The notes beneath the pieces are model-generated. The model did not search any database and had not been told where the DNA came from. It saw only the letters and a list, made by a program, of their open reading frames with translations. The translations under genes and the position numbers were made by a program. Positions 381-21,820 of a stretch of DNA of 64,000 bases are shown here, in pieces. Location: positions 2,272,001-2,336,000 of the forward strand of contig OZ252098.1 in the NCBI GenBank assembly GCA_965248355.1, written 5' to 3'. Numbering within the stretch: the stretch's first letter is position 1; each line of letters begins with the position of its first letter. This DNA comes from Candidatus Latescibacterota bacterium. GTDB taxonomy: Bacteria > Latescibacterota > UBA2968 > UBA8231.

Positions 381-560
381 GGCCGGTGAAGATCGTTTCG
401 CGCGGGGCTCGCGACGAGCGTAACTGCAAGCAGAATCTGGAAGATACTGGGCCGCCGGAATGCGGTAAAGAGCGCTCCTTCCGGCGCCTTGAGCCCATCC
501 GCCGCCCCCCGTAGCTTCTGGGCTCGCCTCCCCCGCCCGCCTCCCCGCCCGGGACCACGG

Positions 561-5398: not shown

Positions 5399-6369
5399 TG
5401 GAATACGGACGGCCGGCCTGGACCGCCAAGAAGGTCTCCCGCATCGTGCAGGGCACGATCATGCTGCGCCAGGATGCGCAGGAAGAGGGCTTCGAGCTCC
5501 TCGACGCCGTGTGGGCCTCGGGCATCAACGCCTTCGACACGGCCGCCCTCTACGGCGGCGGCACCTGCGAGCGCGTCCTCGGACGGTGGCTGGAGGACCG
5601 CGGCCTGCGCGGCCAGGCCTTCGTCCTCGGCAAGAGCTGCCACCACAACTCCGACCGCCGGCGCGTGACCCCCTTCGACATCGCCTCTGACCTGGCCGAC
5701 TCCCTGGCCCGGCAGCGCCACGGGTACCACGACCTTCACTGCCTCCACCGCGACGACCCGCAGGTCCCCGTGGGACCGATCGTCGAGGCCCTCAACGAGC
5801 ACCTCGACGCCGGCCGCATCCGCGCCTTCGGCGGCTCCAACTGGACGACGCCGCGCCTGGAGGAGGCCAACGAGTACGCCGAGGCCCGGGGCCTGCGCGG
5901 CTTCGTCGCCTCGAGCCCCAACTTCAGCCTCGCCGACGAGAAGGAGGCGCCCTGGGAGGGCTGCCTGAGCATCTCCGGCCCGTCGCGGGCGGCGGACCGG
6001 GAGTGGTACGCGGCCCAGCGGATGCCCCTGTTCACCTGGTCGAGCCTGGGCCGGGGATTCTTCTCGGGACTGCTGACCCGGGCCAACGCCGAGTCCCTGC
6101 GCGACGAGGTCGACGCCTCGAGCGTCGCCTCCTACTGGCACGAGGACAACTGGCGGCGCCTCGACCGCGTCCGGCAGCTGGCCGCCGAGAAGGGCTGCCC
6201 CGTGCCCCAGGTGGCCCTCGCCTGGGTGCTGCAGAACCCCGGCCTGGACGTGTACGCCCTCGTCGGCGCCCGCACCGGGGCCGAGTGCCAGGCCAACGCC
6301 GAGGTCTTCGACCTGCCGCTGACGGCGGCGGAGATGGAGTGGCTGGACCTGCGGAGGGAGGAGCGGTGA
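5395..6369 (+). CDS. Aldo/keto reductase
   Basis: GINAFDTAALYG, LHRDDP, FGGSNW, QVALAWVL; ATGA overlap with the previous gene. Confidence 0.9.
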   Translation: MMEYGRPAWTAKKVSRIVQGTIMLRQDAQEEGFELLDAVWASGINAFDTAALYGGGTCERVLGRWLEDRGLRGQAFVLGKSCHHNSDRRRVTPFDIASDLADSLARQRHGYHDLHCLHRDDPQVPVGPIVEALNEHLDAGRIRAFGGSNWTTPRLEEANEYAEARGLRGFVASSPNFSLADEKEAPWEGCLSISGPSRAADREWYAAQRMPLFTWSSLGRGFFSGLLTRANAESLRDEVDASSVASYWHEDNWRRLDRVRQLAAEKGCPVPQVALAWVLQNPGLDVYALVGARTGAECQANAEVFDLPLTAAEMEWLDLRREER

Positions 6370-6473
6370 TCTTCGGGAGCCGGGCGACTGCCTGGACCGC
6401 AGGAGCTACTCGAAGAGTTGTGGACCCAACCCTTCAACCCGTGCTGCCCACTGCTCAGATAGGCTCGATCGGG

Positions 6474-6501
6474 TTGACCGTGGTCTCGGGCACGGTAGAT
6501 T
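6474..6501 (+). promoter_or_regulatory. Putative sigma70 promoter with overlapping palindromic operator
   Basis: TTGACC-N16-TAGATT, overlapped by the inverted repeat ACCGTG-N8-CACGGT, upstream of the low-GC gene pair. Confidence 0.4.
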
Positions 6502-6571
6502 CGGGCTATGTGGACTCTTGGAGTCGACTGCACAAAACAACATATGGCTGCAAAGCCGGAGGGTTCTTGCG

Positions 6572-7024
6572 ATGAGATCTGTCGATATTGCGGTGTCTGG
6601 TCCAGATGAAGAACTCCAGCTTGTCGTCGAAATCAAACACAAGGTTGGGGCCTCTGCCGAGTGGGTCACCCACCTGCGCAGCAACTTGCTGACTCATTCA
6701 TTCATGCCTCCCGCTCCGTTCTTTCTGCTCGTCCTCCCTGATTTTCTCTATCTGTGGACAGACGCCACGCAGATGGATGAGCTGGCAAAGCCTGCCTATA
6801 GAATCGACTCTGACAAAGTACTGGCACCATACCTCAAGTCGAACCAATCCCTGAACGATCTAAGTGGATATGGACTCGGATTGCTTACGACTTCCTGGTT
6901 GAACGACTTGGTCCGTGCAGATCTTCAACGGGACTCGGTAGGCTCGGATTCCCAATGGCTCTTTGACTCAGGGCTGTACGAAGCAATTGCACACGGGTCC
7001 GTCGAGCTTGAAGCGGCCACATGA
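6572..7024 (+). CDS. Hypothetical protein with PD-(D/E)xK-like nuclease motif
   Basis: GGAGG RBS before ATG 6572; VDIAV...LVVEIK; clearly lower GC than the backbone. Confidence 0.6.
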   Translation: MRSVDIAVSGPDEELQLVVEIKHKVGASAEWVTHLRSNLLTHSFMPPAPFFLLVLPDFLYLWTDATQMDELAKPAYRIDSDKVLAPYLKSNQSLNDLSGYGLGLLTTSWLNDLVRADLQRDSVGSDSQWLFDSGLYEAIAHGSVELEAAT

Positions 7025-7620
7025 TTGTGTATGTGGAATCAAACTTCGTCCTTGAGCTTGCTTATCTTCAGGAGGAACATGGCTGCTGCTCGGAACTCTT
7101 ACGCCTATCAGAATCAGGTGACATTGGCTTGGCGTTACCCGCCTTCTGTATTGGAGAACCATATGAATCATGGGTGCGTCGGCGGAAGAAACGAGAACGG
7201 CTACACGGAGAGCTCGTCACGGAAATCGGTGAGCTCTCTCGTTCAAGACCTTACGAAGGGTCCTCCGATGAGTTTCGAGAACTGACCAGCCTATTGACCG
7301 AGAGTGGCGAGCAAGAGAAAGAGCGACTCGATAGGACCCTAGAGAGAATCCTGCAAACCGTTGAAGTGATACCCATCGGTCCGATTGCCAGAAACGCGAT
7401 AAGATTCCAGAAGACTCTCATCCTTTCGCCACAAGACTCGATAGTCTATGCATCGGTTCTCCATCATCTGGCTACAGCTCACGGGGAGGTCTGCTGTTTC
7501 ATCACCAAGAACTCCAAGGATTTCGCGAATCCGGATATCCAGAGCGAGCTGAGGCCCTACAATTGCAGATTGCTGACAAAGTTCGCTGCTGGCTTGCGGT
7601 ATGTCCGTAGCCAATTGTAG
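7021..7620 (+). CDS. PIN-domain protein (DUF4935-like)
   Basis: MIVYVESNFVLE, LSPQDSIVYASVL, FITKNSKDF follow the PIN acidic-motif layout; ATGA overlap with the upstream gene. Confidence 0.75.
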   Translation: MIVYVESNFVLELAYLQEEHGCCSELLRLSESGDIGLALPAFCIGEPYESWVRRRKKRERLHGELVTEIGELSRSRPYEGSSDEFRELTSLLTESGEQEKERLDRTLERILQTVEVIPIGPIARNAIRFQKTLILSPQDSIVYASVLHHLATAHGEVCCFITKNSKDFANPDIQSELRPYNCRLLTKFAAGLRYVRSQL

Positions 7621-7720
7621 ACATGCACACGCCCAGGCCGTTCAAGCCAACTTCATGACTACAGCCGCTGCAGCACTCTCCGTAAGAGCAACGGTCTACC
7701 GACCCGTCGTCTCCGCCCTC

Positions 7721-8005
7721 CCTCACACCACCGCCGCCGACTCCCGCTCCACCTGATCCCAGTCCGGCTCGTGCGGGGACGCGGTCGTTCCAGGCGATGG
7801 ACGTGCCGCGGCAGTCGAGTTCCTCCTCGGGAGGGCGGGGCTCTGACCCCCGGTCTCGAGGAGGGGGATCGTTGGGCACCGCCAGGATGGCGTGGGGATC
7901 GCCGCCGTGGACCTCGACGCCGAAGACCTCGGCGAGCTGGGCCTGCTTGATCTGACCAGTGATGCCACGCCGCGCTGGCAGGCGATGTCCACGGCCTCCA
8001 GGGCC
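7721..8005 (-). pseudogene. Degenerate direct-repeat copy of the 3' end of the enolase-superfamily gene at 19585-20775
   Basis: Aligns by eye to 19583-19891 (GITGQIKQAQLAE.FGVEVHGGDPHAILAVPNDP...EPDWDQVERES.AVV*), with substitutions, 1-bp indels and a 24-bp deletion (19664-19687 missing). Confidence 0.92.
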
Positions 8006-8013
8006 GTGCCGAC

Positions 8014-9630
8014 TCAGGCCGGCACGATCGTCACGTCCACCTCGTCCACGACGATCGGCTCGGGGTCCGGCACCGCGCCGACGTCGACCATCCCGGAGAA
8101 CAGCAGCGTGAGCGTGAGATCGTTGTCGCCGCGCACCACCAGGCCGGGGGTCAGGTCGATGACGACGGTGGTGTGCGGAGGCAGCGTCCGGCCCGCCTGC
8201 GCCGGGCGCCCTTCGCGGTGGTACACGCGGCGAAGTTGCCCGGCCGGAACTTCGGTGCCGTTGAGGTGCACGGCGATCCGGTCGGCCGATCCCAGGCCGA
8301 CCGCGCGCAGGAACAGCGTGGCGCTGGCGGTCTTCTCGACATCTTCGAACAGCCGGAACCGGTAGCTCGCCGACGGGCTGCCCGGCTCGCGCGGCAGGAC
8401 CAGTTTCTGGTCCTTCATCGTGCCGCACACATTGGTGCCGGACGGGCTGATGCCGTGGTAGCCACCCCACATCGAGCGGTAGGTGTAGTGACGGACGCCG
8501 TCGGCCACCCGCTTCGGGTCGCGAGCTTCGCGCAGGAGGCGGAAGGCCGCAGGCCAGCCGGTCTCCGCGCCGCGCTTGCCGGAACGGAACCCGCCCCAGT
8601 GCTTCTGGAAGTTGTAGACCGACATGCCGTCGGCGCCTTCCTGGCGCAGGGCGTGCGCCAGTGCGCGGTACTTCTCCGCCGTCGCCGGCGGACCGAAGCT
8701 CTCGCGCGAGGAGCAGTACGGCTGCACGCCCGGATAGAGCCGGCACGGTGTCCCCGCGGTGACAGCACGGAACTCCTCGTAGTCGGCGTTGAAGTCGGTG
8801 AACGACGAGTCCATGGGAGCGACGAAGTCGACCAGTCCGCCGCCGGTCCACGCGGGCACGTCGAGCCCGACGGCGTGGCAGTCCTCCAGGGTCTCCGGCA
8901 CCAGCACGCCCAGCTCCAGCCGCCGCCCGCGCGCGGCGCCGCGCTCGTCGAGCATGGTGCGCAGCCGCTCGATCAGCTCGGTCATCAGCGGCTGCCGCTC
9001 GCGGGCCAGGCTCCGGTCGCCGCCGGGGGCGGGGAAGTAGAGGCCGTCGCGAAAGGTGAGCAGGACGCCGTCCACGTCGAAGCGCGACACCACCTCGGCG
9101 ACGACCGCGTACAGGTAGTCGCGCACCTCGGGGACCGTGAAGTCCATCCGGTTGCCCGGCAGGAAGGCGCCGCCGGGCGGCACATCGGTGATCTTCCACT
9201 GCGGGTTGCGGTGCAGGAACATGCCGCCCTGGTCCGGAGCGCCGTGGTTGTCGTTGACCCGGAACCCCGCCAGGCAGCGCATGCCCCGCGTCCGGCAGCG
9301 CTCCAGCATCACCTGCAGCGGCATGATGCCGTCGTCCATCATCGGCAGGAACCGGCGGTGCTGCGGGCGCGCGTCGTACTCGAAGCGCTCGGAGCGGAAG
9401 TACATGGTCCAGCCCGCGTTGTAGACCTCCTGCACGAACACGTCGGCGTCGCTGGTGGCCACGTGGTCGATGAACGTGCGGAGCTCTTGCGGCGCGGCCG
9501 GGTGCGAGGTGATCAGCGGCCGGGCGTCGCCCGGGTCGAAGTCGTAGTTGGCCACGTTGGACGGATCGCTGACGTAGACCAGCTCCCAGTCCCGCGGCGG
9601 CCGGGTGTCGGTGGGCGTCACGGCGGGCAT
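8014..9630 (-). CDS. Putative glycoside hydrolase-like TIM-barrel protein (GHL10/DUF187-like) with C-terminal beta domain
   Basis: FRVNDNHG, MDFTVPEVRDY...SRFDVDGV, GADGMSVYNF. Confidence 0.6.
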   Translation of the reverse strand: MPAVTPTDTRPPRDWELVYVSDPSNVANYDFDPGDARPLITSHPAAPQELRTFIDHVATSDADVFVQEVYNAGWTMYFRSERFEYDARPQHRRFLPMMDDGIMPLQVMLERCRTRGMRCLAGFRVNDNHGAPDQGGMFLHRNPQWKITDVPPGGAFLPGNRMDFTVPEVRDYLYAVVAEVVSRFDVDGVLLTFRDGLYFPAPGGDRSLARERQPLMTELIERLRTMLDERGAARGRRLELGVLVPETLEDCHAVGLDVPAWTGGGLVDFVAPMDSSFTDFNADYEEFRAVTAGTPCRLYPGVQPYCSSRESFGPPATAEKYRALAHALRQEGADGMSVYNFQKHWGGFRSGKRGAETGWPAAFRLLREARDPKRVADGVRHYTYRSMWGGYHGISPSGTNVCGTMKDQKLVLPREPGSPSASYRFRLFEDVEKTASATLFLRAVGLGSADRIAVHLNGTEVPAGQLRRVYHREGRPAQAGRTLPPHTTVVIDLTPGLVVRGDNDLTLTLLFSGMVDVGAVPDPEPIVVDEVDVTIVPA

Positions 9631-9635
9631 CTCTC

Positions 9636-11834
9636 TCACTCCGGCGACCAGGTGGTGGCGTGGACGCCCTCGTCGCGGGCGCCGGCCCACAGGGTCAGCA
9701 CGCGGCCGTCGCTCAGCAGCACCGAGCTGGTGCGCGCGTCCATGGGGTGGTAGGCGAGGATGTAGGGCTCCGGATCCCACGTCCGTCCGCCGTCGGAGCT
9801 GGCCAGCGCGCGGGGACCGCCGACGGCGTCCTTGTGGTCGTAGGTCAGCACGACGCGGCCGTCCGGCAGGCCCACGGCATCGGCGGACACCATGTGCAGG
9901 CGGGTGACCAGGAACGGGGTGGTCCAGTCGTAGCCGCCGTTTCCGGAGAACATGATCGCCTCGTTCTTGTAGCGGCCCGGTCCGACCCGGTTGAGCGAGG
10001 GCGCCGGCCAGGTCTCGCGGCCGCCTCCCTGCCCGGCGGGCGCGTCGAACAGGTCCGGGTGCAGGTACTCGCGCTGGAAGCGCGTCGCGCAGAGCAGCTC
10101 GCCCGACGGCAGCTCCAGGAGGTTCGACTCGCAGCTCCCGGGCGGCAGCACCGTCCAGTCGCCCCAGCTCCTGCCGTCGTCATGAGAGCGCAGCAGGACG
10201 TCCCCTTCGTATCCGGCCTGGTGCGCGGCATCGTTCCAGGCGTTGCTGCAGAAGCAGATCACGGTGCCGCCGGCGAGCTGCACGATGCGGCTGCCGTCGC
10301 CCTGCCCGCAGTAGCGCGTCGGCCGGGGCGCCAGCTCGGAGTCCGTCCACGTCCGCCCGCCGTCGTCGCTGCGCGCCACGCGGGGCTCGGGCGTGGGGAA
10401 CGTGCCGCGCGCCGGGTCGGCTTCGTCGGTCAGCGCGGCGTAGCTCGCGAGGAAGGTGCCGGCGCCGGTCACTCCGAAGCCGAACACCGCCGGCTCCCGT
10501 CCGGACAGCGGGATCTCGGCCACGAAGCTCCACGTGCGGCCCTCGTCGGTGGAGCGATGGATGCGGCAGTCGCGGCTGGAGTAGACCAGGCTGCCGTCGG
10601 GATGGCGGCAGACGACCGCGCCCTTGGCGCCGGCGCCGGCGAAGTAGCGGTGCTCGGCCGGCACGCGCCGGTAGGCCGTCATCTCGAAGTTCTCGACGTA
10701 GTCGCCGCCTTCGTAGCGGTCGTCCGGCCGCATGCGGACCATGCCGTTGTCCAGGTAGCCCCGTGCATCGACCTTGTCGTTCCACAGGTTGGGGTAGACC
10801 AGCGGCGGTTTCTCCAGGCCCTCCGGGGTCCAACGCACCACGCCGATCGCCGGCCGGCGGCCCCACTCGTCCATGCCGGGGCCGTAGATGGTGGGCGCGT
10901 ATGAACCCAGCGCCGCGCCGCGGTGGAAGGCGGACACGATCGCGCCGTCCGCTGTCACCGCGATGGCGGCGCTCACGCCCGCACCGGCCAGCACCGGGCG
11001 CGCCTTCTCGCGGATGGCGTAGCGGCTGAGCGCGAGCACGTGGACCTCGTCTCCCCAGTGCGTGCCGGCGTCGTCGTCGGGGGTTGAACCGACGACCGCA
11101 CGCGCGCCGTAAGGGAAGTGCGGCATGCCGTAGCTCAGCACCAGGCGGCCGTCGGGAAGCTCCGCCAGCGGTGCGGGCAGCGGCGCGAATCCCTCCGGCA
11201 CGTTCCAGGTGGCGCCGCCGTCCTCGGATTCGCCCAGCGCGATGTCACCCATAGCGCCGCCGACGGGGGCGACCAGCCGGCCGCAGCCGAGCTGCAGCGG
11301 GTGGAGCGTCCCCCCTCCGGCCGGAAGCCCGGCCGCGGGCTCCCACGCCGCGCCGCCGTCGGTCGAGCGCAGGATGCGTCCCGGCAGGCACAGCAGCAGC
11401 GCGCCGTCGGCCAGGGCGGTCAGGCAGGCGCGGGGCGAGTCGGACAGTTCCACGTCCAGGGCGGCGATCACCCGCCACGGTCCGGCGGGCTCGTCGGCGC
11501 TGACGATCAGCACGCTTCGAGTGAGGTTCGCTTCGCTCACGGCGCCGCTCCGCTGGATGGCGGCGAGGAGCGTCCCGGCCCGGCCGGCGGTCAGTGCGAG
11601 CACCACGCCGCCCGGAGCCGCGGGCGCTGCCAGGTCGGCCAGCTGCGACCAGGTCACGCCGCCGTCGCCGCTGCGCGCCAGTGACCCGCCGCGGCCTGCG
11701 AGCACGAGCTCATCCCCCTGCCGGCAGAGCAGCGGATCGGCATCGCCGAACAGCACTTCCTGGCGCTCGACGCGCAGCCGGCGGTAGCGCAGCACGTGGC
11801 GGTCGCCGTGATCGGACTCGAAGCGTTCCTTCAT
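9636..11834 (-). CDS. Sialidase-like/BNR Asp-box beta-propeller protein
   Basis: Many S-x-D-x-G-x-T-W Asp boxes (RSGDGGVTW, RSTDEGRTW, RSDDGGRTW, RSHDDGRSW, SSDGGRTW). Confidence 0.8.
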   Translation of the reverse strand: MKERFESDHGDRHVLRYRRLRVERQEVLFGDADPLLCRQGDELVLAGRGGSLARSGDGGVTWSQLADLAAPAAPGGVVLALTAGRAGTLLAAIQRSGAVSEANLTRSVLIVSADEPAGPWRVIAALDVELSDSPRACLTALADGALLLCLPGRILRSTDGGAAWEPAAGLPAGGGTLHPLQLGCGRLVAPVGGAMGDIALGESEDGGATWNVPEGFAPLPAPLAELPDGRLVLSYGMPHFPYGARAVVGSTPDDDAGTHWGDEVHVLALSRYAIREKARPVLAGAGVSAAIAVTADGAIVSAFHRGAALGSYAPTIYGPGMDEWGRRPAIGVVRWTPEGLEKPPLVYPNLWNDKVDARGYLDNGMVRMRPDDRYEGGDYVENFEMTAYRRVPAEHRYFAGAGAKGAVVCRHPDGSLVYSSRDCRIHRSTDEGRTWSFVAEIPLSGREPAVFGFGVTGAGTFLASYAALTDEADPARGTFPTPEPRVARSDDGGRTWTDSELAPRPTRYCGQGDGSRIVQLAGGTVICFCSNAWNDAAHQAGYEGDVLLRSHDDGRSWGDWTVLPPGSCESNLLELPSGELLCATRFQREYLHPDLFDAPAGQGGGRETWPAPSLNRVGPGRYKNEAIMFSGNGGYDWTTPFLVTRLHMVSADAVGLPDGRVVLTYDHKDAVGGPRALASSDGGRTWDPEPYILAYHPMDARTSSVLLSDGRVLTLWAGARDEGVHATTWSPE

Positions 11835-11850
11835 TTGGCGGTCACTATCC

Positions 11851-12006
11851 CCTTCCAGATAGGGCCGGATCGATCAGGGCGGCGATGACTCTCAGGCCAC
11901 CGCCGCAGGCCGCGCATTCGCAGGGTCGCCCATCGCAGCCGATGGCCGCGGGACGCAGCGCTCGCCGAGCCCTCCGCGGAACCAGAGCCGCCAGCTTCTC
12001 CAGCAG
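11851..12006 (-). mobile_element. IS91/ISCR-family transposase remnant A (C-terminal, multiply deleted)
   Basis: Encodes LLEKLAALVP / HRLRWATL / ECAACGG.LRVIAAL; near-identical to segments of 16340-16632. Confidence 0.85.
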
Positions 12007-13461
12007 TTAAGACAGAGAACGCCGCTCGGCTAGACTCTGGTAAACCTGTCGCCCTTCGTTGAATAGATGCAGGACTTCCTCCCGCTGTGTATCGTTTGTA
12101 AACCGCCAATCCCGGCTCACTATCTCCGTTGCACTGTCAATCGAGCGGACAAAGAACGCTGCTGAACCTTGCGCGATGTCGACGGGGAGACCTGTACCGA
12201 CATAGATGGGACTCGTGTGTGCATAGATCGGCTGTGCAAAGCTGTCACGGGCTTCCCCAAAGGCACGTGCTGCGACCCAGCCATCGGACTCGATCTGGAG
12301 GTCAAACGCCCATTCCCCACCCTGTCTCAGCCCGTCGAGTGGCACCGTCTGGGTGACCACCCCGTTGTAAACCAACTCGACAAGGTTGAGCGGGTAGTGC
12401 GATTGCCAGGTGATTTGTCCCGACGCCGTGCGAGGACACCCATTCGACGATTCGATAGCGCCGCCGGGGGGTTCCCCATCGAGATTCAGAAATAGCGCCG
12501 GTCCGTTCGTGATGAAGGTACGTCCCGCCTGCAAGCCCTTCAACCAGTTTTCATAGGTAAATTCCTCATCGGTTTGGACATAGACACGGTTGTTCGCACA
12601 GATGAACCAATCTGTCCCGGTCGATGCCGGGAGCGGGATGCCGCAGTTGAGCAGGTGATACCAGATGTCGTATTCGAGATCTTTCCAGGAGGGATCGAAC
12701 AGGTTGAAGGCATCCAACTTCCCTAACGCAGCCGCCACCGGCGCTTCCATTCCCCTTCCGTTGTGACACCACAGCACAATACCTCCCTGTCGTTTGGCGT
12801 CGTCGCAGGCGTAACAGATCGGCGGGTAGTCGGGGTCAAGGTTGCTGACAAGATCACCACGACTAACCGGCTCTACCAGATTCTCAATGTGCAAGAACAT
12901 GACATGTCCAGACCCGCCACCATAATGGGAGTTGTGGCGACTTTCCTCACCACAATCGACCAGATGGTGTGCGGTCGAATAGTCGGTCATGAATCCGAGC
13001 GGATACTTGTTGCTGGCATAGGGTAGTTCACCCCGCTGCAGGATGCTTATGACGGTTACGCTGAGGTCGTGGACTCTTGGATCGAGTCGCAATCGGTCAT
13101 CGGGCTGAGCCTCCCTCTCATTGTAGTGCAGATGTGTATTCCCCGGATACCACCCCTGCGATGGCAGATCTGCCCATCGTTTGAGATGCAGCTCGACCTC
13201 GACGGCCCCTTTTGCGGGCATCGAAACGACCTTCCGAAGGGGTTCGTACTCCGTGCCGCGCTCAACCACGATGTCCGTTGAACCACGGGGCACGTCCACA
13301 GTAAACTCCCCCGGACAGTAGAAAAATGGGTCGCCCGGACCAATCTTCAGGATACTGTCAGCCGGGTGGACAAAGTGGCCGCTGCTGGTCAGGACATGGA
13401 CTTTCGCCTCGACGGAGGCACCTGAAACGCTGTCTCGAATGACGCCTCTGAGAGTTGCCAT
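12007..13461 (-). CDS. CehA/McbA family metallohydrolase (PHP-like)
   Basis: VERGTEY, GWYPGNTHLH, WCHNG, STGTD, GRTFITNGP, AHTSPIYV; lower GC. Confidence 0.8.
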   Translation of the reverse strand: MATLRGVIRDSVSGASVEAKVHVLTSSGHFVHPADSILKIGPGDPFFYCPGEFTVDVPRGSTDIVVERGTEYEPLRKVVSMPAKGAVEVELHLKRWADLPSQGWYPGNTHLHYNEREAQPDDRLRLDPRVHDLSVTVISILQRGELPYASNKYPLGFMTDYSTAHHLVDCGEESRHNSHYGGGSGHVMFLHIENLVEPVSRGDLVSNLDPDYPPICYACDDAKRQGGIVLWCHNGRGMEAPVAAALGKLDAFNLFDPSWKDLEYDIWYHLLNCGIPLPASTGTDWFICANNRVYVQTDEEFTYENWLKGLQAGRTFITNGPALFLNLDGEPPGGAIESSNGCPRTASGQITWQSHYPLNLVELVYNGVVTQTVPLDGLRQGGEWAFDLQIESDGWVAARAFGEARDSFAQPIYAHTSPIYVGTGLPVDIAQGSAAFFVRSIDSATEIVSRDWRFTNDTQREEVLHLFNEGRQVYQSLAERRSLS

Positions 13462-13528
13462 GGAGTGGGTCCTTTCTATGACTCGTCACGTAGGGCCTCA
13501 GGGGCCCCACGGCGCGCTTCCACGCCTC

Positions 13529-14680
13529 CTACTGCCCCCAGACCTCTTCGAAGACCCGGAGGTAGTTCTCGCCGAGGAACTTGCGGATCGTGTCGTCGCC
13601 GTGGCCTCGCCGCACGAGTTCCTCGGTGATCGCGGGGACCTTGCCGATGTGCTCGAGGCCCTCCGGCGCGAGGTCGACCCCGTACTGGTCGCTGCCCAGA
13701 CCGACGTGGTCGGGGCCCATCACGTCGAGAGCGGTTTCGATGTCGTCGACCACTTCGGACAGGTTGCGGTGGGTGATGTGAATCAGTCCCAGCACGCCGC
13801 CGTTGCGAGCGATCGCCTCGAGCATCTTCCGGTCACGAGGGAGTTCGAGGCGTGTTCGCGGACGTGTGCCTCCGGCGAGGCTCGAAGCCGGATCGCTGCT
13901 GGGGAACATGGTAGGCGTGGTGTGGGAGAGAACGACCGGACGGTCGACCCGGTCGAGGATCTCCCAGAAGCCGCGCTCGCCGATGTGCACCAGGTCGACC
14001 ACGATGCGGAGTTCTCCCATCCGGTCGATGAGTGCCTTGCCGGCGGCCGTCAATCCACCCTGGTCGTCGGCGGCCCGGCAGCCGTCCGCGTAGATGTTGC
14101 GACGGGTGTGGGTCAGGCTCGCCACCCGCAGGCCGAGTTTGTAGTACAGATCGAGGAAGCGCGGCTCGGCGCCCAGCGCCTCGCAGCCCTCGAAGGAGAA
14201 GACGAGCGCGACCCGCCCATCCTCCTTGGCCTGACGGATCTCGGCCGCCGACGTGGCGAGCACCAGCTCGTCGAGGCGGTCGACTTCATGGTGCAGGTGC
14301 CAGGTCATCTCGAGCCCGCGGTGCAGCGGGCTGTTGAGCTGGTCGTCGTCGAGGTAGACCGCACAGAGTTGCGAAGTGATGCCGCCTTCACGCCACCGCG
14401 GCAGGTCGTACTGGCCCATGCACCCGAACCAGACGGTGTGCGCCGACATCCCGAACTGGGCGAAGGGGCCGGCGTCGAAACCGAGCGGCGGCTCCCAGCT
14501 CCCGGGGTCGGGGAGTTCGACCCGTTGATCGAGCGTCATCTTGCCGTCGCTGACCGGAATGAGGATGTCGCAGTGACCGTCGATCACGATCGACTCGCGG
14601 TGCAGGGCGGAGGCTTTTTCAGAGATCTCCAAGAGAGTGCTTTCTACGGCGTTGCCCTCGACGACGTAGCCGCGTGGCAC
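13529..14680 (-). CDS. Membrane dipeptidase (M19 family)
   Basis: IDGHCD, FEG, SLTHTRRN, VDLVH, SH, HVGLGSD, KFLGENYLRV; start codon uncertain. Confidence 0.88.
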   Translation of the reverse strand: MPRGYVVEGNAVESTLLEISEKASALHRESIVIDGHCDILIPVSDGKMTLDQRVELPDPGSWEPPLGFDAGPFAQFGMSAHTVWFGCMGQYDLPRWREGGITSQLCAVYLDDDQLNSPLHRGLEMTWHLHHEVDRLDELVLATSAAEIRQAKEDGRVALVFSFEGCEALGAEPRFLDLYYKLGLRVASLTHTRRNIYADGCRAADDQGGLTAAGKALIDRMGELRIVVDLVHIGERGFWEILDRVDRPVVLSHTTPTMFPSSDPASSLAGGTRPRTRLELPRDRKMLEAIARNGGVLGLIHITHRNLSEVVDDIETALDVMGPDHVGLGSDQYGVDLAPEGLEHIGKVPAITEELVRRGHGDDTIRKFLGENYLRVFEEVWGQ

Positions 14681-14799
14681 CCGCGACTCGATGCCGGGCG
14701 GAACCTCCTTGATCTGAGCCCGAGCCGGCGCGCCTCTTCGAAGCTCGGGAGGGAAGTCGCCCTGGATGACCTGTTGGGTGGGGGAGCCCCAAGTATAGG

Positions 14800-14976
14800 G
14801 TCGGGGTTCCAGCCCATCCCCGCGTTCTGGCTGTAGCCAAAGATGTGGCCGCTCGGTGCTTCGACTTGCTCTATGGTCAGCGGCAGCTTGCCACTGGGGC
14901 CGGGAGCACGGGTGCGGACTTGGTAGATCGCATCATCGGTCTCGCCGACGATTTCTGCAAAGGAATCAGTACTCAT
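14800..14976 (-). pseudogene. 5' fragment of a YjhG/YagF-type (IlvD/Edd family) sugar-acid dehydratase
   Basis: IYQVRTRAPGPSGKLPLT...PSGHIFGYSQNAGMGWNP resembles the family N-terminus; similarity stops after ~58 aa. Confidence 0.7.
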
Positions 14977-15004
14977 GCTGCCTCGTTATCTTTCTGGTTC
15001 AGTC

Positions 15005-16015
15005 CTACCAGCCCTCTTCGCGGACTTGGATTTTCTTTAACAAGGGACGCCACCAGGCTTCGTTGTCGCGGTACCAGTGGACCGTATCGCGGAAGCTCTG
15101 GCCGAAATCGACTTGCGGTTCCCAACCTAGCTGGGTGCGGATTTTGGTCGAATCGAGCAGGTAGCGGCGGTCGTGGCCGGGGCGATCATCGACGTAGGTT
15201 TTGTGCGCGGCGTCCAGCCCCAAGGCGTCGAGGATCAGGTCAGCGATGGTTTCGACGTCTTTTTCAATGCCGCTGCCAACGTTGTACGTCTCGCCGATCT
15301 CACCTTTGTTCAGCACGAGGTCGATGGCCCGGCAGTGGTCATCGACGTGGAGCCATTCGCGGCGGTTCTGGCTGGATTTGTACAGCGGCATCTTCTGGCC
15401 GGTGAGCAGGCGGACGACGAAGAAGGGGATGACTTTCTCCGGGAATTGATAGGGGCCGAAGTTGTTGGAGCAGTTCGACAGCGTCACGGGTAGGCCAAAA
15501 GTGTGGCCATAAGCGCGTACGGCTAGATCGGCGGCAGCCTTGGCCGCGTTGTACGGAGTGCGCGGCCGGTAGGGCGATTCCTCGCTGAAGGACTCGTCCG
15601 CGTCGAGGGCCAAGTCGCCGTACACTTCGCAAGTGGAAATGTGGTGAAAGCGCGGCACTTGGGCATCGGCCGCGGCCTGCAACAGCTTTTGCGTCCCCAC
15701 GACATTGGTCTGGAAAAAAGCCGAGGGATTGACAATGGCCAAGCTGTTGTGCGATTCCGCGGCAAAGTTGACCACGTAGTCCGGTCGGTGGACTTCGAAA
15801 AGATGGCGGGTCAGATCGGCATTCTGAATATCGCCGCGGACAAAGGTGTAGCGGTCCCCGTAGTTTTCTTCCACGTCCTGCAGGCTGGCCAAATTGCCGG
15901 CGTAGGTGAGCAGGTCGTAGTTGACAATGCGGTCGTCGGGATAGGTCGATAGCCAGTAGCGAATGAAATTGGAGCCGATGAAGCCGGCACCGCCGGTGAC
16001 GAACAGGGTAGTCAT
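15005..16015 (-). CDS. rfbB: dTDP-glucose 4,6-dehydratase
   Basis: VTGGAGFIGSNF, DLLTYAGN, NFAAESH, HISTCEVYG, YNAAK, NNFGPYQFPEK, DRPGHDRRY. Confidence 0.93.
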   Translation of the reverse strand: MTTLFVTGGAGFIGSNFIRYWLSTYPDDRIVNYDLLTYAGNLASLQDVEENYGDRYTFVRGDIQNADLTRHLFEVHRPDYVVNFAAESHNSLAIVNPSAFFQTNVVGTQKLLQAAADAQVPRFHHISTCEVYGDLALDADESFSEESPYRPRTPYNAAKAAADLAVRAYGHTFGLPVTLSNCSNNFGPYQFPEKVIPFFVVRLLTGQKMPLYKSSQNRREWLHVDDHCRAIDLVLNKGEIGETYNVGSGIEKDVETIADLILDALGLDAAHKTYVDDRPGHDRRYLLDSTKIRTQLGWEPQVDFGQSFRDTVHWYRDNEAWWRPLLKKIQVREEGW

Positions 16016-16046
16016 GGATGCTCTTGGTTAGAGGTTGGGTGCGTGA

Positions 16047-16680
16047 AGTATAGGTAAAATGAGGCACTTTCTTGGACTCTCGGTCAAGGCGGTGATCGCA
16101 CCGCCAGGGTCAGGCAGCCCCCTGAGAGGATCGTTTGCCCATCCTTCGACCGAGCTCGCAGTCCGGTCTGGTTGCCTGTCGGCCCGTATCCGGATCAATC
16201 CGGGGCCTGAGGGACCGTTGAAGGCACACCCAGCCGTACCCCCGGCGACGGCGACGGGTCGAAAAGGCAGGTCAGGCGGCCAACTCGAACAGCGGCTCAG
16301 GCGGGGCCCTCGGCGGGGGCCTCACCGGCAGCCCTACTCCCTCCAGATAGGTCCGGATCGAGGGCGGATCGCAGGGCGGCGATGATTCTCAGGCGACCGC
16401 CACAGGCCGCGCATTCGCTGAGGTCGGAGGAAAACACCCGCGCCAGCAGGGTCGCCCACCGCAGCCGATGGCCGCAGGACGCAGCGCTCGCATCGCCGTC
16501 CGCCGCCGACGGCTCGGCAACCGGCTGGGCCGCGATGTGGTCGCGGGCCCGGGCCAGGGGCGCCAGGACCCCGTGGTAGCGTTGGGGATGGAGCCGGGGC
16601 GGGGAACCAGAGCCGCCAGCTTCTCCAGCAGTTCCATCGGAGACAGCCGGAGATGGCGGGTCCCATCCGACCACGGCGTT
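16047..16680 (-). mobile_element. IS91/ISCR-family remnant B: transposase C-terminus (stop 16272-16274) plus ~225 bp 3' region ending in an oriIS-like motif
   Basis: TPWSDGTRH..LEKLAALVP..RYHGVLAP..WATLLARVF..ECAACGGRLRIIAAL..YLEGVGLP..LFELAA* with frameshifts; downstream end reads AAAGTGCCTCATTTTACCTATAC on the minus strand. Confidence 0.85.
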
Positions 16681-17119
16681 TGCCACCGCCCCGGTGTCAA
16701 TCGCTTGGGTCACCTGTCCCGGTCTCTGAAGGTGCATGGCGACAACCACCGCAGTCTCCTCCCGGAGTCTGCGGTATGCTTCGAAAGTCGCGTGGAAAGG
16801 GATCCTCAAAAACAATGTGCTTTTTGTCGCCGAACAGCCGGTAAAGAGGGAGCCCTCGTCGGTTTGGAGGCGAAGAACGTCGTGTCGGCGTCGATCGAGG
16901 TTTTCCGGGTACGCTGGGCGCTGGTGCCATTCTTCGTCGCTGGACAGTATTCCCTCTAGTCTCAACCGCTTTCAGGTAATGGTTTGCTTGCGCAACGGAT
17001 GCATGGTGATGTGGATGAATAACAGTCGATCAAGCTGCTGTCATTGTGCGTCGGTCGCGTCCGTTGCATATTCATGCGGGACATCAATATAGCACCTTTT
17101 TGCCATGGAAAGACCTCGG

Positions 17120-18703
17120 ATGAAGGACTCTTCGATCTACATTCCCGTTTACGACTGGGACTCGACTGCATCACTGCCGCAATCCTGGGGGTCTCCGCCT
17201 CTTGGCTGGCAGTACGCCAAGCGCCTAGTGCTGGTAAACGACACAGCACACGACCGCCGGGACGAACCGGTCGAAGCGGACGTGGACATTCACGCCGCCC
17301 ACGTCACCGACCTCGGCCGAGAGGTCCGCGTTGCCCGTCTCCACAGCGAAAACGGTCCTATAGAAGTCGTGCCTAGCCAGGCGCATCTCATGGACCGCGA
17401 GGATGAATTGCTGCGCTGTCGGCTGTTTTTCCTTGCCGATGTGGCCGCCGGGGGTTCGGCGACCTACCTCTTGCTATACGGCAACCCCGAGGCGCCCGAG
17501 CCTTGCTACGACACCGACCTCAAGGTCTCGGGTGAAGGGCATGCTCTTGAGGTGGAAAACGAGTATTACCGCGCGGTCCTCGGAAAGAAGAACGGCAACT
17601 GGAAGAATCACTACTCGAAAAGGGGGCCAGCCGAACTCGTAAATCGACACGGCCACGGAGTCGAAGGCACCATTCACTGGGGGCCTGACTGGAGCGACGA
17701 GCGCGTCGGCCGCTACCGGCTGACCAACTGGGACGGCCCGCCCCTGTTCGACTACGATGTGATCAGGGGGCCGGTCTGCGTGCGCATCCGCCGCTGGGGC
17801 CACCCGATCTTGTCAATCGGTCCCCAGGTCGGCCGGCCCCACAAGGTCATGGCTACCGTGACTTACAGCTTCTGGGCCGGTCAGCCCTACGTCATCATGG
17901 AATCGAAGCTCGAGGTTCTCGAGGACGTGCGTTTCCGCGACTGCCGCAACGACGAGTTCGTCATCGGCGAGCAGCTACCCGAACGAGCTTGGATGGGACC
18001 GGAGGGAGAGATCGGTTTTGGGGCCCGGGGCTGGCAGCGCGAGGACCCGCGCTGGGTGACCCATTTCAACCGCGAAACCGGCGAGGGATTCGGTAGCATT
18101 CACCTCCAATTCGAGAACACCAACCCAAGTTGGCCGCAGCCGGCCCACACCGGATTCTCGCACACCGGCACTTGGGTCCGCTATCCGGTGCAGCACGCGG
18201 CGATGCGCGCTGGCGAGCACGTGTACGAAAGGAACGCCTATGTCCTGCACCGGTACGAAGAGGGAGGAGAGCACGGCGGCCTCGCCGACCTCGTCAGCCA
18301 CCAGCAGCGTCTGCTCAACCCGATCACCCAAGGCGAGGCCCCTCCGGCTCCCAGGCCGATCAACCTCGACAATGTCATGGACGCGCTGCGGGCCACCAAC
18401 GAATTCGAGCTCTACGTCCAGGGATCACCCTGGGGACAGCGCCAGCTTAGCTTCGTCGATATCGGAATCGTGCGCGACGTCGCCATCCAAGGGAGCGACA
18501 TCCGCGTCGACATCGTCATGCCGTACGCGGGACGCGAAACGTGGTTCGATTGGTTTTCCGCTGGCATTGAGGAGCAGGTCCGCGCTCGTTTGCAGGACGT
18601 CGGCGAGGTCGAAGTGCGCCTCGTCCGCGAGCCGAAATGGACCCCGCAGCGATTGAACGACCGCGCCCGCCGCGTCATCGGGCCTCTAGATGCACCGGGA
18701 TAG
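17120..18703 (+). CDS. Hypothetical protein: beta-sandwich N-terminal region fused to a C-terminal DUF59-like domain
   Basis: C-terminus VMDALRA...SFVDIGIVRDVAI..IRVDIVMP..EPKWTPQRL resembles DUF59/MIP18; start 17105 or 17120. Confidence 0.65.
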   Translation: MKDSSIYIPVYDWDSTASLPQSWGSPPLGWQYAKRLVLVNDTAHDRRDEPVEADVDIHAAHVTDLGREVRVARLHSENGPIEVVPSQAHLMDREDELLRCRLFFLADVAAGGSATYLLLYGNPEAPEPCYDTDLKVSGEGHALEVENEYYRAVLGKKNGNWKNHYSKRGPAELVNRHGHGVEGTIHWGPDWSDERVGRYRLTNWDGPPLFDYDVIRGPVCVRIRRWGHPILSIGPQVGRPHKVMATVTYSFWAGQPYVIMESKLEVLEDVRFRDCRNDEFVIGEQLPERAWMGPEGEIGFGARGWQREDPRWVTHFNRETGEGFGSIHLQFENTNPSWPQPAHTGFSHTGTWVRYPVQHAAMRAGEHVYERNAYVLHRYEEGGEHGGLADLVSHQQRLLNPITQGEAPPAPRPINLDNVMDALRATNEFELYVQGSPWGQRQLSFVDIGIVRDVAIQGSDIRVDIVMPYAGRETWFDWFSAGIEEQVRARLQDVGEVEVRLVREPKWTPQRLNDRARRVIGPLDAPG

Positions 18704-18749
18704 TACCCTGGCCACCGAGGAGCTGCCTTTTTCATCGAGGCGAAGGCAT

Positions 18750-19490
18750 CTCGAGGAGATGGAGCCGGGGCGGGGGAACCAGAGCCGCCAGCTTCTCCAG
18801 CAGTTCCATCGGAGACAGCAGGAGATGGCGGGTCCCATCCGACCACGGCGTCTTGAGCGCGAAGCAAAGCCGCTGCGCATCCAGAATGCGCAGGCGCCCT
18901 CCCGCCAGGGCCGGCCGGGCCACGTAGCGGCACAAGCGTTCGAGCCCCCGCCGGTCAGGGCCGGCGATCCGCGTTGCCGCATGCAGGGAAAAGCCGCGCG
19001 AAGCAAAGCACAAGGGCGCCGTACGCACTCCGGTGGCCGGATCTTTCAGGACCCGGCGCAGGCGTTGGCCGGCGCGGGCCCCGGTGGCGGTGAGCCCTCG
19101 CACCGAAGCCGCGGTGAGAGCCGCCAGCACCGGCTCCTCGTCGGCGAGCCGATCGGCTGCGGTGTCGTCGAGCAGGCCGCGTTTTGTGCACAAACGGATG
19201 ATGCGGCGCGCACTCGTCTCCACGATCTGCTGCACGGCTTGGTCGGACAACGGCGGGGCCGCAACGAAAACCGGAGCGTCCTCCCCATCGACGTAGACCC
19301 CGTCGAGCATGAGCACGTGCACGTGGGGATTGAGGTTCGGGGAGGAACCGAATCTCTGGACGAAGGTCACCGAGCCCCACCGCGCGCGGTCATGGCCCAG
19401 GGCCTGCGCCTGACGTCGATACCAGCCGCCTACCACGCGCAGAAACACCGCCAGTATCTTCGAGACCCACTCGCCGTCGTAGGCGACGGC
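18750..19490 (-). mobile_element. IS91/ISCR-family remnant C: catalytic core of an HUH rolling-circle transposase, truncated at both ends
   Basis: FVQRFGSSPNLNPHVHVLMLDGVY (HUH), GFSLHAA, LERLCRYVARP (catalytic Tyr), LKTPWSDGT, LEKLAALVPPPR. Confidence 0.92.
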
Positions 19491-19584
19491 GTGCACACAA
19501 GGAAGTTGACCCTGCTGCGGCAGGGGCGGGCCCGGAGGCTCGCCCTTCGGACGGGCGGTGTGATGGTCCCTCCCCGGCGGAGCC

Positions 19585-20775
19585 TCACACCACCGCCACC
19601 GACTCCCGCTCCACCTGATCCCAGTCGGGCTCGTCGGGGACGCGGTCGTTCCAGGCGATGGACATGTACCCGTCCTCGACGTAGGCCGTGCCGCGGCAGT
19701 CGATCTCCTCCTCGGGAGGGCGGGGGCCCTGGCCTCCGGTCTCGAAGAGGGGGTCGTTGGGGACCGCCAGGATGGCGTGGGGGTCGCCGCCGTGGACCTC
19801 GACCCCGAAGGCCTCGGCGAGTTGGGCCTGCTTGATCTGGCCGGTGATGCCGACGCCGCGCTGGCGGGCGATGTCCACGGCCTCCAGGGCCAGGTAGGGG
19901 GCGGTCTGGAAGGGCTGGCCGCCGAGGTGGCCGATCCACTCCAGGGCCAGCACCGGCAGGTCGAGGGTGGCGCACAGCTTCTGCAGGCCCAGCAGGTCGT
20001 AGTCCTGCAGGGGTTCCTCGATCCAGGTGTAGTTGTGTTTCTCCAGCACCCGGCCGATGCGGACGGCCTCGTCGTAGGTGTAGGACTCCACCGGGTCGTG
20101 CAGGAGGATGAAGTCGTCGCCGAGAGCGGCGCGCAACTCGCGGGCCAGCTCGGTGTTGCCGCGCACGCCGCGGTAGGAGTGGTCCTTGGCGCCCCTGAAG
20201 CCGTCCTCCTTGACCTTCACGGCATTGGCCACCATCTCGTCGATCGTGTGGCCGCCGTAGTTGCGGTAGGCCGGGACCCTTTCGCGGCAGGCGCCGAGGA
20301 GGCGGTACACGGGCTGCCGGGCGTGGCGGCTGGCCAGGTCCCACAACATTCGGTCCACCATATCGACCACGCCGCGGCCGGTGTAGTAGAAGCGCTGGGT
20401 GTACCACAGGCGCTGCCAGATGTACTCGCGGTCGAAGGCGTCGACGCCCAGCAGCAGCGGGCCGATCTCGATCTTGAAGCGGCGCGCATGGTGCGTGAGT
20501 TCGTCGACGTGGAAGCCGCTGCCGAAGGCGGTGTAAGCATCCAGGGGGCCGTCGGTGACCAGGCGCAGGGTGGCGGTCCAGGTGGGATGGAGGGTCTCGT
20601 CCCGGCAGGCCTCGAGCCAGCCGGCGGGCAGCTCCGGCGGCGCTCCGAAGCCGGCGGCGTGGGTGAACAGGCCCGACAGGCCGGGGGGCGCCTTCTCCAT
20701 GCCGCCGCGGTTGCCCACCGACCGCGCCTGGGGTTCCCCCGGCCGGATGTAGATGCGCACGTCCCGGATCTGCAT
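19585..20775 (-). CDS. Mandelate racemase/muconate lactonizing enzyme family protein
   Basis: DRMLWDLA, VPAY, GAKDH, LHDP, WIEEPL, GITG. Confidence 0.85.
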   Translation of the reverse strand: MQIRDVRIYIRPGEPQARSVGNRGGMEKAPPGLSGLFTHAAGFGAPPELPAGWLEACRDETLHPTWTATLRLVTDGPLDAYTAFGSGFHVDELTHHARRFKIEIGPLLLGVDAFDREYIWQRLWYTQRFYYTGRGVVDMVDRMLWDLASRHARQPVYRLLGACRERVPAYRNYGGHTIDEMVANAVKVKEDGFRGAKDHSYRGVRGNTELARELRAALGDDFILLHDPVESYTYDEAVRIGRVLEKHNYTWIEEPLQDYDLLGLQKLCATLDLPVLALEWIGHLGGQPFQTAPYLALEAVDIARQRGVGITGQIKQAQLAEAFGVEVHGGDPHAILAVPNDPLFETGGQGPRPPEEEIDCRGTAYVEDGYMSIAWNDRVPDEPDWDQVERESVAVV

Positions 20776-20785
20776 GCTCGACCTC

Positions 20786-21820
20786 TCAGGCGCCCAGGAT
20801 GGTGGCGGTCTCCCGCTCCACGGCGGCCCAGTCCAGCTCCAAGCCCAGCCCCGGCGACCGGGGCACGGGGAGGTGGCCCTCGGTCAGGTGGAGGGGGTTG
20901 CGAATGAGGGGCTCGCCGCCCTGGGAGCCGGTGGCCGTGGCCTCGAACCAGGTGCAGTTGCGCAGGGCGCCGATGACGTGGGCGTGGACGAAGCCGAAGC
21001 CGACTCCCTTGGAGGTGATCTCGCAGTTGACGCCGAAGCTCTCCGCCAGGCGGGCGATCTTGAGCATGTCGGTGATACCGCCGCGCCAGGGCACGCTGGC
21101 GCGCACGATGTCGACGGCCTGGCGGGCCAGCATCTGCGAGGTGGAGAAGGCCGAGCCGGGCAGGTACTCGGCGGCGGCGATGGGCACGTCGAGGGCGTCG
21201 GCCAACCGCTTCAGGCCCATCAGGTCGTAGTCGCGCAGGGGCTCCTCGAACCAGAAGTAGTCCTCCTCCTCCAGCACCCGGCCGACACGGAGGGCCTGGG
21301 GATAGGTGTAGGTCTGCACGGCGTCGTGCATGAGGTGGAAGTCGGGCCCCACGGCGCGGCGGGCCTGGCGGGCGACCTCCATCATGGTCTCGGGGCCGTG
21401 GTAGCAGTGGTCCTTGTACCCGAAGAACCCCTCCTCGCGGGCGGTGACCGCAGCCTCGACGAAGTCGCCCACGGTCGGCAGGTTGCCCCCCATCTTGTAA
21501 GCCGGGATGCGGTCGCGGAAGCCGCCGATGAGGCGGAAGACGGGCACGCCGCAGGCCTTGGCGGCCAGGTCCCACAGGGCCACGTCGAGGTAGCCGCGCA
21601 CCGAGTGGGGCAGGTAGGCGAAGCGGTCGAGGCGGACCAGCTCGTTCCACAGGCGCTCGCGCTCCATGGGGTCGGCGCCGACGAGGGTCTCGCGGCAGGA
21701 CTGGAGGATGTGGCGGGCGCTGTTGTCGTCCACGCCCGGGCACCAGCCCTCCAGCTCGGTATCGGTCCGCAGGCGCAGGAGGCCGCAGGGCTGGTGGATG
21801 TGGATGGCGGTGATGCGCAC
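20786..21820 (-). CDS. Mandelate racemase/muconate lactonizing enzyme family protein
   Basis: DVALWDLAAK, GYKDH, LMHDA, WFEEPL, GGIT, PGLGLELD. Confidence 0.9.
   Translation of the reverse strand: MRITAIHIHQPCGLLRLRTDTELEGWCPGVDDNSARHILQSCRETLVGADPMERERLWNELVRLDRFAYLPHSVRGYLDVALWDLAAKACGVPVFRLIGGFRDRIPAYKMGGNLPTVGDFVEAAVTAREEGFFGYKDHCYHGPETMMEVARQARRAVGPDFHLMHDAVQTYTYPQALRVGRVLEEEDYFWFEEPLRDYDLMGLKRLADALDVPIAAAEYLPGSAFSTSQMLARQAVDIVRASVPWRGGITDMLKIARLAESFGVNCEITSKGVGFGFVHAHVIGALRNCTWFEATATGSQGGEPLIRNPLHLTEGHLPVPRSPGLGLELDWAAVERETATILGA

Follow-up and report, generated by a model that had tools for sequence, protein, structure and literature searches.

The stretch of DNA analysed here (the window, 64,000 nucleotides) comes from a Candidatus Latescibacterota genome, G000, which is assembled as one contig of 5.50 Mb with a guanine-plus-cytosine (GC) content of 68.9%. 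Within it, between an MR/MLE enolase-superfamily gene (eno1) and a decayed direct copy of the 3' end of that gene, lies a series of metabolic genes interspersed with three remnants (A, B and C) of a transposable element with affinity to the ISCR group of insertion sequences (IS). The locus is probably a native, genus-level cluster for the catabolism of carbohydrates and sugar acids which an ISCR-family element has partly overwritten. A preliminary description, made from the sequence alone, had regarded the whole interval as a platform of captured genes. Its gene calls were borne out by profile searches against Pfam and NCBIfam, and the gene that it had called an intact enolase is indeed intact, but the Pfam matches of this gene identify the product as an MR/MLE protein and not as an enolase.

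Organisation of the locus

The comparisons covered the 75 genomes of the family, in which genus g14 is represented by 31 genomes and the genus of G000 by nine besides G000 itself; g14, g22 and g3 are other genera of the same family. Positions in the transposable element are given as q coordinates on the near-full-length copy in G000 (genome 56700->54642), in which the transposase gene tnpA runs from q398 to about q1836 and the right end, oriIS, is at q2058. The features of the locus, in window coordinates, are as follows.

6518-7620, plus strand: low-GC island (0.53) with two open reading frames, the second encoding a PIN_12 protein (Pfam PF16289, E 4e-9)
7721-8005, minus strand: decayed partial copy of the MR/MLE gene (its final ~309 nt), a pseudogene fragment
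8014-9780, minus strand: GHL10-family glycoside-hydrolase-like gene, native (Pfam PF02638)
9636-11834, minus strand: BNR/sialidase-like gene, native (Pfam BNR_2)
11854-12008, minus strand: ISCR remnant A, internal pieces (q1680-1756 and q1473-1506) without the oriIS end
12007-13461, minus strand: CehA/McbA-family metallohydrolase gene, GC 0.57 (NF038032, 197 bits)
13529-14680, minus strand: M19 membrane dipeptidase gene, native (Pfam PF01244, 227 bits)
14791-14799, minus strand: lone 9-nt copy of the oriIS terminus, CCTATACTT
14800-16045, minus strand: putatively captured segment R, with rfbB and the first ~60 codons of a YjhG/YagF dehydratase gene
15005-16015, minus strand: rfbB, dTDP-glucose 4,6-dehydratase (TIGR01181, 418 bits)
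16046-16681, minus strand: ISCR remnant B, the 3' end of tnpA and the oriIS end (q1425-2058)
16683-18690, plus strand: putatively captured segment D, with a DUF59-fusion gene and its upstream region
17105-18703, plus strand: DUF59-fusion gene, 532 aa, DUF59 domain C-terminal
18754-19491, minus strand: ISCR remnant C, the Y2_Tnp core of tnpA (q788-1523; Pfam PF04986, 82 bits)
19585-20775, minus strand: eno1, intact MR/MLE enolase-superfamily gene, native (Pfam MR_MLE_C, MR_MLE_N)
20786-21820, minus strand: eno2, tandem MR/MLE paralogue, native

The blocks between the remnants differ in composition, as the preliminary description had observed: the GC content is 0.725 for GHL10 and BNR together, 0.574 for CehA, 0.591 for rfbB and 0.617 for the DUF59-fusion gene, against 0.689 for the genome.

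Native and acquired parts of the cluster

The eno1 gene is present in four genomes of the same genus at 93-96% amino-acid identity, and the locus can be read throughout in three relatives, G002, G006 and G007, where the order is the left flank (window 1-6369), a variable island, GHL10, BNR, CehA, M19, a sulfatase, an aldo-keto reductase, a small open reading frame, eno1 and eno2. The GHL10-BNR-CehA-M19 block is syntenic in all three at 89-93% nucleotide identity (90-92% amino-acid identity for the GHL10 and BNR proteins) and adjoins the same MR/MLE gene, and the locus stretches of these relatives hold no ISCR sequence except, between BNR and CehA, a vestige of remnant A. Only about 14.66-19.55 kb is specific to G000, where it stands in place of the sulfatase, the aldo-keto reductase and the small open reading frame, with eno1 keeping about 45 nt of ancestral downstream sequence; the sulfatase and the aldo-keto reductase occur in four close relatives. 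More distant genera keep only eno1-eno2, the DNA downstream being unrelated in a tblastx comparison with the window. The preliminary description had expected related genomes to show an empty site with one gene end and variable cargo. No empty site for the whole 12 kb was found; the three relatives carry the block, and 8013-14660 is present in them without the insertion sequence (that vestige apart) or the duplicated gene end, which is the very pattern that the preliminary description had named as counting against its own model.

Within the G000-specific interval, sequence comparison supports the import of two segments from genus g14. In 24 of the 31 g14 genomes a conserved locus matches segment R (14800-16045) at 88-94% nucleotide identity, whose matches in the nine other genomes of the genus of G000 are 80 nt or shorter. 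Segment D (16683-18690) corresponds, at 86-94% nucleotide identity, to a native locus that 18 of the 31 possess, and it is absent from G002, G004, G006 and G007. The best matches of both segments are in a single g14 genome, G125, at 94%, where the two loci lie 315 kb apart. The GC content of the segments, 0.59-0.62, is that of the g14 loci (0.60-0.625), and none of the ten native g14 loci that were fetched contains ISCR sequence. The preliminary description's view of the interval as captured cargo thus holds for the rfbB/yjhG start and for the DUF59-fusion gene, which have a g14 origin, but not for GHL10, BNR and M19, which are syntenic in the relatives; for CehA there is a hint, to which we return below.

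The junctions of segment R are precise to the base. Its homology starts at the base beside the oriIS terminus of remnant B (16045/16046), the rfbB start codon lying 31 nt beyond the oriIS end, and its far end at 14800 abuts the lone CCTATACTT at 14799-14791. The 5.5-Mb genome contains this 9-mer at ten sites, of which five are ISCR ends, and the g14 donor loci do not have it at the position of the R boundary. Another lone CCTATACTT, with GGCATTT before it, lies far from this locus at window 51926-51942 (+); it may be what is left of an ISCR end, or a coincidence. Segment D extends from the truncated left edge of remnant B (q1425) to three codons before the native stop codon, the last three native codons having been replaced, and is followed by 63 nt and then by remnant C at q1523. 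Similarity searches for the origin of 14662-14790, 18691-18753 and 19492-19536 gave none, and no match crossing any junction of the mosaic was found in the 75 genomes when the best three candidates per genome were scored. Several genera of the family have kept the DUF59-fusion gene itself, at 69-94% nucleotide identity; the N-terminal ~440 aa of its 532-aa product have no Pfam or NCBIfam match, and the C-terminal DUF59 domain corresponds to FeS_assembly_P.

The cargo of segment R is also joined to the element in another genus. In G085 (g22), an oriIS-anchored ISCR fragment is fused to the yjhG side of rfbB DNA that is 97% identical to that of G125, and on the side opposite the fusion this rfbB DNA reaches past the boundary seen in G000, an arrangement which fits DNA mobilised from beyond the left end of the element with variable termination. 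At this locus in G085 (L056 3637-9415), which has an oriIS-anchored ISCR fragment on either side, the imported rfbB is divided into three pieces by insertions of 1.4 kb and 3.1 kb.

The ~5 kb that distinguishes G000 is thus likely to be a mosaic of two transposon fragments and two pieces of chromosome from unlinked g14 loci. Such a mosaic might also be produced by an assembler that joined g14 reads of the same sample through shared ISCR repeats, and the shortness of the foreign segments and the abundance of the repeat would suit this explanation: in metagenomes from three other studies (runs X5, X6 and X8) the summed contig depth over the ISCR remnants (16020-16520, 18525-19526) is 10-30 times that over the neighbouring genes, so that the element family must be very abundant in those communities. 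The ten native g14 loci that were fetched, however, have no ISCR beside them, the boundaries at 14800 and 18690 lie outside repeats, the segments differ by 6% from all g14 genomes sampled, and short-read contigs of run X1 are exact across 16650-17146 and 6000-7766 (matches which are not independent, because X1 may be the source sample). We regard an assembly chimera as extremely improbable.

The transposable element

The transposase-related loci that were found come without exception (14 of 14) from metagenome-assembled genomes (MAGs) of Candidatus Latescibacterota, and related MAGs have intact transposase genes, with products of 476 aa (L026) and 480 aa (L025). The 476-aa protein (L026:4007-5437) aligns with Rcr1, the transposase of ISCR1, over residues 4-474 at 38% identity (E 1e-114), and the two have the zinc-finger (CxxC...CPSC), HxH and RYHGV motifs in common; its best matches in a plasmid collection are ISCR1 (38.8%) and ISCR2/ISVsa3 (37.7%). 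The frameshifted G000 copy scores 289 bits with the NCBIfam model for ISCR clade Ia (NF052416, cut-off 925) and 80.6 bits with the IS91 model (NF033538, cut-off 125), and because both scores are under their cut-offs they indicate an affinity to ISCR and not membership of the named clade Ia. The ISCR-like character that the preliminary description had assigned to the remnants is thereby confirmed, and by its sequence the element is a distant member of the ISCR family, of the IS91/ISCR HUH rolling-circle type.

The ends of the element are sharply defined. The oriIS end sits 227 nt past the stop codon of the transposase gene and finishes ...AAAAAGGTGCCTCATTTTTCCTATACTT, while ISCR1 finishes ...AAAAAGGTGGTTTATACTTCCTATACCC, 232 nt after its stop codon (position from PMC6218425). 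The right ends of the two align as AAAAAGGTG-N10-CCTATAC, with both blocks at equal spacing. Among the right ends collected from G000 and its relatives, 18 of 20 finish TTTT(T/A)CCTATACTT, each being followed by an unrelated flank. At the other end, a left boundary near q290, a candidate terIS with a putative short hairpin (TGTGAGG-GAAT-CTTCACA), is common to six full-length copies. RNAalifold found no conserved oriIS hairpin in the alignment of the right ends (seven pairs, -2.1 kcal/mol, no compensatory pairs), and no outward sigma-70 promoter of the ISCR1 kind was found in the oriIS region upstream of rfbB (0 sites), where the promoter type of the host may differ.

The remnants in the window can all be mapped onto the near-full copy. 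Remnant C (19491->18754) corresponds to q788-1523 at 90% identity and lacks the N-terminal zinc-finger part and the 3' end of the gene. Remnant B (16681->16046) corresponds to q1425-2058 at 83% identity and includes the true right end at q2058 with the motif in common with ISCR1, so that the oriIS-like end noted in the preliminary description is genuine. Remnant A consists of two pieces, 12008->11975 (q1473-1506) and 11928->11854 (q1680-1756). As had been described, all three derive from one element in one orientation, on the minus strand, and overlap in sequence, B with C by 98 nt and A with B. Copies in G085 are 93% identical to remnant B and 95% identical to remnant C. In the relatives, remnant A is represented by ~35 nt in G007 and by a diverged stretch in G002, and is absent from G006. 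Only three Y2_Tnp matches occur in G000, the longest copy being frameshifted; every transposase copy in the genome is broken, in agreement with the erosion proposed in the preliminary description, and the array is therefore now a fossil.

Similar loci and possible cassettes

The preliminary description had proposed to look in the genome for an intact transposase and for other arrays delimited by remnants. The former was not found in G000, and the latter exist: four further loci have a gene bracketed by ISCR pieces, and in relatives there are serial arrays of oriIS-anchored fragments of varied length, 1-3 kb apart. In the array at genome 51.5-56.4 kb, a phosphoesterase gene lies between the near-full copy and an oriIS-anchored copy of 539 nt (99.6% identical), and a search for the donor of this cargo (genome 52-54 kb) gave partial matches only, at 77-82% identity. 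This phosphoesterase/HEAT-repeat gene stands between direct repeats of a second oriIS-like motif, AAAAGACCCTTTATAATGCCTATACAT, at genome 52154-52180 and 54155-54181 (L001 2154-2180, 4155-4181), and the motif occurs in none of five shuffled sequences. At genome 2572301-2572329 (L002) a further ISCR fragment is joined at its truncated edge to a variant of this motif, AAAAAGGCGCTTTATTAACGCCTATACGT, and no transposase matching the second motif was found in G000.

Break points recur in the ISCR copies near q1425-1436 and q1521-1529. These break points, the 98-nt overlap of remnants B and C, the lone 9-mer and the second oriIS-like motif leave room for a cassette-like mechanism, to which we attach a low probability. 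On this view the nick site of oriIS may act in the manner of an integron attachment site, and segments between two direct oriIS termini would be cassettes, the candidate pairs being the 9-nt pair around rfbB and the 27-nt pair of the second type around the phosphoesterase gene (genome 52180/54181); an HUH transposase acting in trans would excise circles and insert them at any resident oriIS end, building serial arrays.

The duplicated end of the MR/MLE gene

The direct repeat of the enolase-like gene end reported in the preliminary description is real: 7721-8005 and 19583-19891 are 86% identical over 311 columns including a 24-nt gap, with 17 differences in 281 ungapped sites. The shorter copy lacks 24 nt and carries 1-nt indels at four places, and in view of the latter the fragment is a pseudogene. 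The homology of the two copies ends 2 nt past the stop codon, after which their sequences differ. The fragment differs from the gene ends of G000 and G007 at 17 of 281 sites each and from those of G006 and G004 at 30-31 sites, and in a tree of the 281 sites it falls in an unresolved group with the G000 and G007 gene ends (bootstrap ~50 at the relevant nodes). Because the fragment groups inside the clade that has the block, it is younger than the block and cannot mark the insertion of the block.

In the preliminary description this duplicate had been the keystone of a model in which repeated rounds of ISCR transposition built the whole of 7721-19891, with the 3' end of the MR/MLE gene in the role of the 3' conserved segment (3'-CS) of complex class 1 integrons and with circles rescued by homologous recombination. 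The layout does run parallel to that of such integrons (a gene end, an ISCR remnant in the same orientation, oriIS, foreign genes and a duplicate gene end), and remnant A, which is at least as old as the subclade, lies inside the interval. Compared feature by feature, a duplicate of the segment upstream of ISCR does close the region in G000, as it does in a complex class 1 integron; what lies between the copies is not all an insertion, since 8013-14660 is syntenic in ISCR-free relatives that have no gene-end copy beside GHL10, and the duplication is not as old as the genes that it encloses. Neither junction of the fragment has an oriIS motif, and the sequences after the stop codons differ where co-mobilisation with ISCR predicts that they should be shared. 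G007, moreover, has three copies of the gene end in a locus without ISCR. A 3'-CS role for this gene end was accordingly abandoned, and the model as a whole is quite improbable.

The three copies in G007 (L017 5029-5086, 5682-5758, 12324-12357) correspond to the final 34-77 nt of the MR/MLE gene. They enclose a HepT-like cassette, and a duplicated 344-nt 5' fragment of the M19 gene lies next to them. G002, G006 and G007 part from G000 at the stop codon of GHL10, into three different islands. The flanks of the cluster differ by genome, with PIN_12 in G000 (6518-7620) and HepT-like, GmrSD and Schlafen/AlbA_2 plus HATPase_c_4 genes in G007 (L017 5126-8665; L022 3763-5148), and they look like hot spots for defence and toxin-antitoxin islands. 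Homologues of the PIN island with 74-77% identity occur elsewhere in g14 and g22, away from the MR/MLE gene, and a search of the 75 family genomes for a donor of the fragment with the PIN island and a full MR/MLE gene gave no match spanning both; the island at 6518-7620 belongs to a variable hot spot and is not part of the ISCR array. The 3' end of the MR/MLE gene seems to be a recurrent recombination junction, and the 285-nt duplicate is best read, from its sequence relationships, as a separate and younger recombination scar at a hot spot and not as an analogue of the 3'-CS. A circularised fragment may have integrated by a single crossover, or a duplication may have been followed by a deletion.

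CehA as a possible older capture

The CehA gene is present at 89-92% nucleotide identity in G002, G004, G006 and G007; its nearest copies outside these are in genus g3, at 78-79%, with no ISCR within 5 kb. One metagenome contig, of run X6, joins 11840 to 13538 and so skips CehA, the shorter side of the match being 46 nt at a likeness threshold of 90%. Together with the low GC content of 0.574 and the position of remnant A at the 3' end of the gene, this contig hints that CehA may be an older capture tied to remnant A and common to the subclade. In run X5 a contig joins 14627 to 16045 with 36 other letters between; it may represent a strain with oriIS beside M19 and no rfbB, and was not used as evidence. 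The low contig cover of parts of the stretch in runs X5, X6 and X8 is no evidence of absence.

Discussion

From the family affinity of the element, the junctions, the donor genus and the synteny we infer a route of transposition and an order of events. One-ended rolling-circle transposition by an ISCR-family element, as modelled for IS91 and ISCR (PMC5737581, PMC6218425), appears likely to have built the mosaic. In this scheme an ISCR-family rolling-circle transposon would have invaded the native catabolic cluster; replication would begin at oriIS, run back through the element, overrun its left end and copy the adjoining donor DNA. Rejoining of the product at an oriIS end would bring the captured DNA into immediate contact with the oriIS terminus. 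Remnant A, and perhaps the low-GC CehA gene with it, probably goes back to an older event of a similar kind in the subclade's ancestor.

Several observations weigh against this scheme. The public runs, covered as assembled contigs, showed neither circles nor junction reads nor any sign of activity, and no experiment has yet demonstrated the transposition of ISCR elements (PMC6218425). Segment D meets remnant B (at q1425) and remnant C (at q1523, by way of the 63 nt) in their interior and touches no oriIS end; the 98-nt overlap of B and C is not explained by the simple model, and the lone 9-mer is not expected from its textbook form. The g14 genomes have few and divergent copies of the element, so the capture may have gone by way of an unsampled intermediate host. 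The junction search was made on the best three candidates in each of the 75 genomes, and the case for CehA as cargo, a hint, consists of its GC content, the adjacent remnant and the one contig joint at the 90% threshold.

The transposon remnants could also be passengers that joined nothing, the mosaic having been made in an unsampled strain and having entered G000 by homology-facilitated illegitimate recombination at the M19 and MR/MLE anchors. The mosaic does replace a native length similar to its own between two conserved anchors, at a recombination hot spot where relatives have unrelated defence and toxin-antitoxin islands and partial gene duplications, and the transposase genes of G000 are dead. 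This alternative accounts for the entry of the mosaic but not for its construction: the captured DNA has the last base of oriIS at one boundary and a 9-nt oriIS repeat at the other, the same cargo is joined to ISCR in G085 of genus g22, and two donor loci 315 kb apart now stand together. It is an unlikely explanation, and capture by one-ended transposition remains the preferred one.

The element resembles ISCR1 (Rcr1/orf513) in the position of oriIS ~230 nt after the stop codon, in the AAAAAGGTG-N10-CCTATAC motif, in a transposase that aligns over its full length at 38%, and in the variable foreign genes that abut its oriIS side, as they do in ISCR1 (PMC6218425). Unlike ISCR1, it resides in a Latescibacterota chromosome with metabolic cargo, has a conserved left end with a putative hairpin in six copies and many truncated oriIS-anchored copies in series, reaches 289 bits against a clade Ia cut-off of 925, and has no demonstrated 3'-CS analogue and no integron (no integrase was found among the open reading frames that were profile-scanned, and no search was aimed at IntI or attC). 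With IS91 and IS1294 it has in common the HUH/Y2_Tnp transposase (PF04986), the mobilisation of DNA from beyond the end opposite oriIS, as in G085, and variable far boundaries; it differs from them in that GTTC or CTTG stands beside the oriIS end in none of 20 ends, where the target rule given in PMC5737581 would place it, and in its 81 bits against an IS91 cut-off of 125. A functional parallel exists with the IS91/ISCR8-type elements of sphingomonads and Delftia (cIS91sdpA), which carry catabolic genes and have repeated partial IS copies flanking the cargo (PMC5737581); there, circles have been observed directly on plasmids of cultured Proteobacteria, whereas here the evidence is comparative, with donor loci known to the base.

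Metabolic cargo in place of resistance genes, which the preliminary description had inferred, is not new: IS91/ISCR elements with catabolic genes and their formation of circles are already published (PMC5737581), as are the structure of ISCR elements and the variable region on their oriIS side (PMC6218425, PMC13393415). A search of one literature collection found no paper combining Latescibacter with IS91. The element itself is new, a distant relative within the ISCR family whose host belongs to an uncultured phylum and whose capture junctions are unusually clear. The locus also carries a caution, because the duplication of a gene end at the flanks can arise without a transposon, and most of the apparent cargo proved to be native.

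ISCR elements are blamed for the movement of many resistance genes although their transposition is undemonstrated (PMC6218425), and the intact transposases and sharply defined ends in L025 and L026 open this element to bench tests, in which ...TTTTTCCTATACTT from the oriIS end would be the putative nick substrate for the 476- and 480-aa proteins. The locus offers a natural before-and-after record of capture, with donors known to the base, one junction on the oriIS terminus and a second genus in which the cargo is fused to the element. It supports one-ended rolling-circle capture outside the Proteobacteria and outside antibiotic selection, and it indicates that elements of this kind move metabolic genes between the genera of an uncultured phylum.

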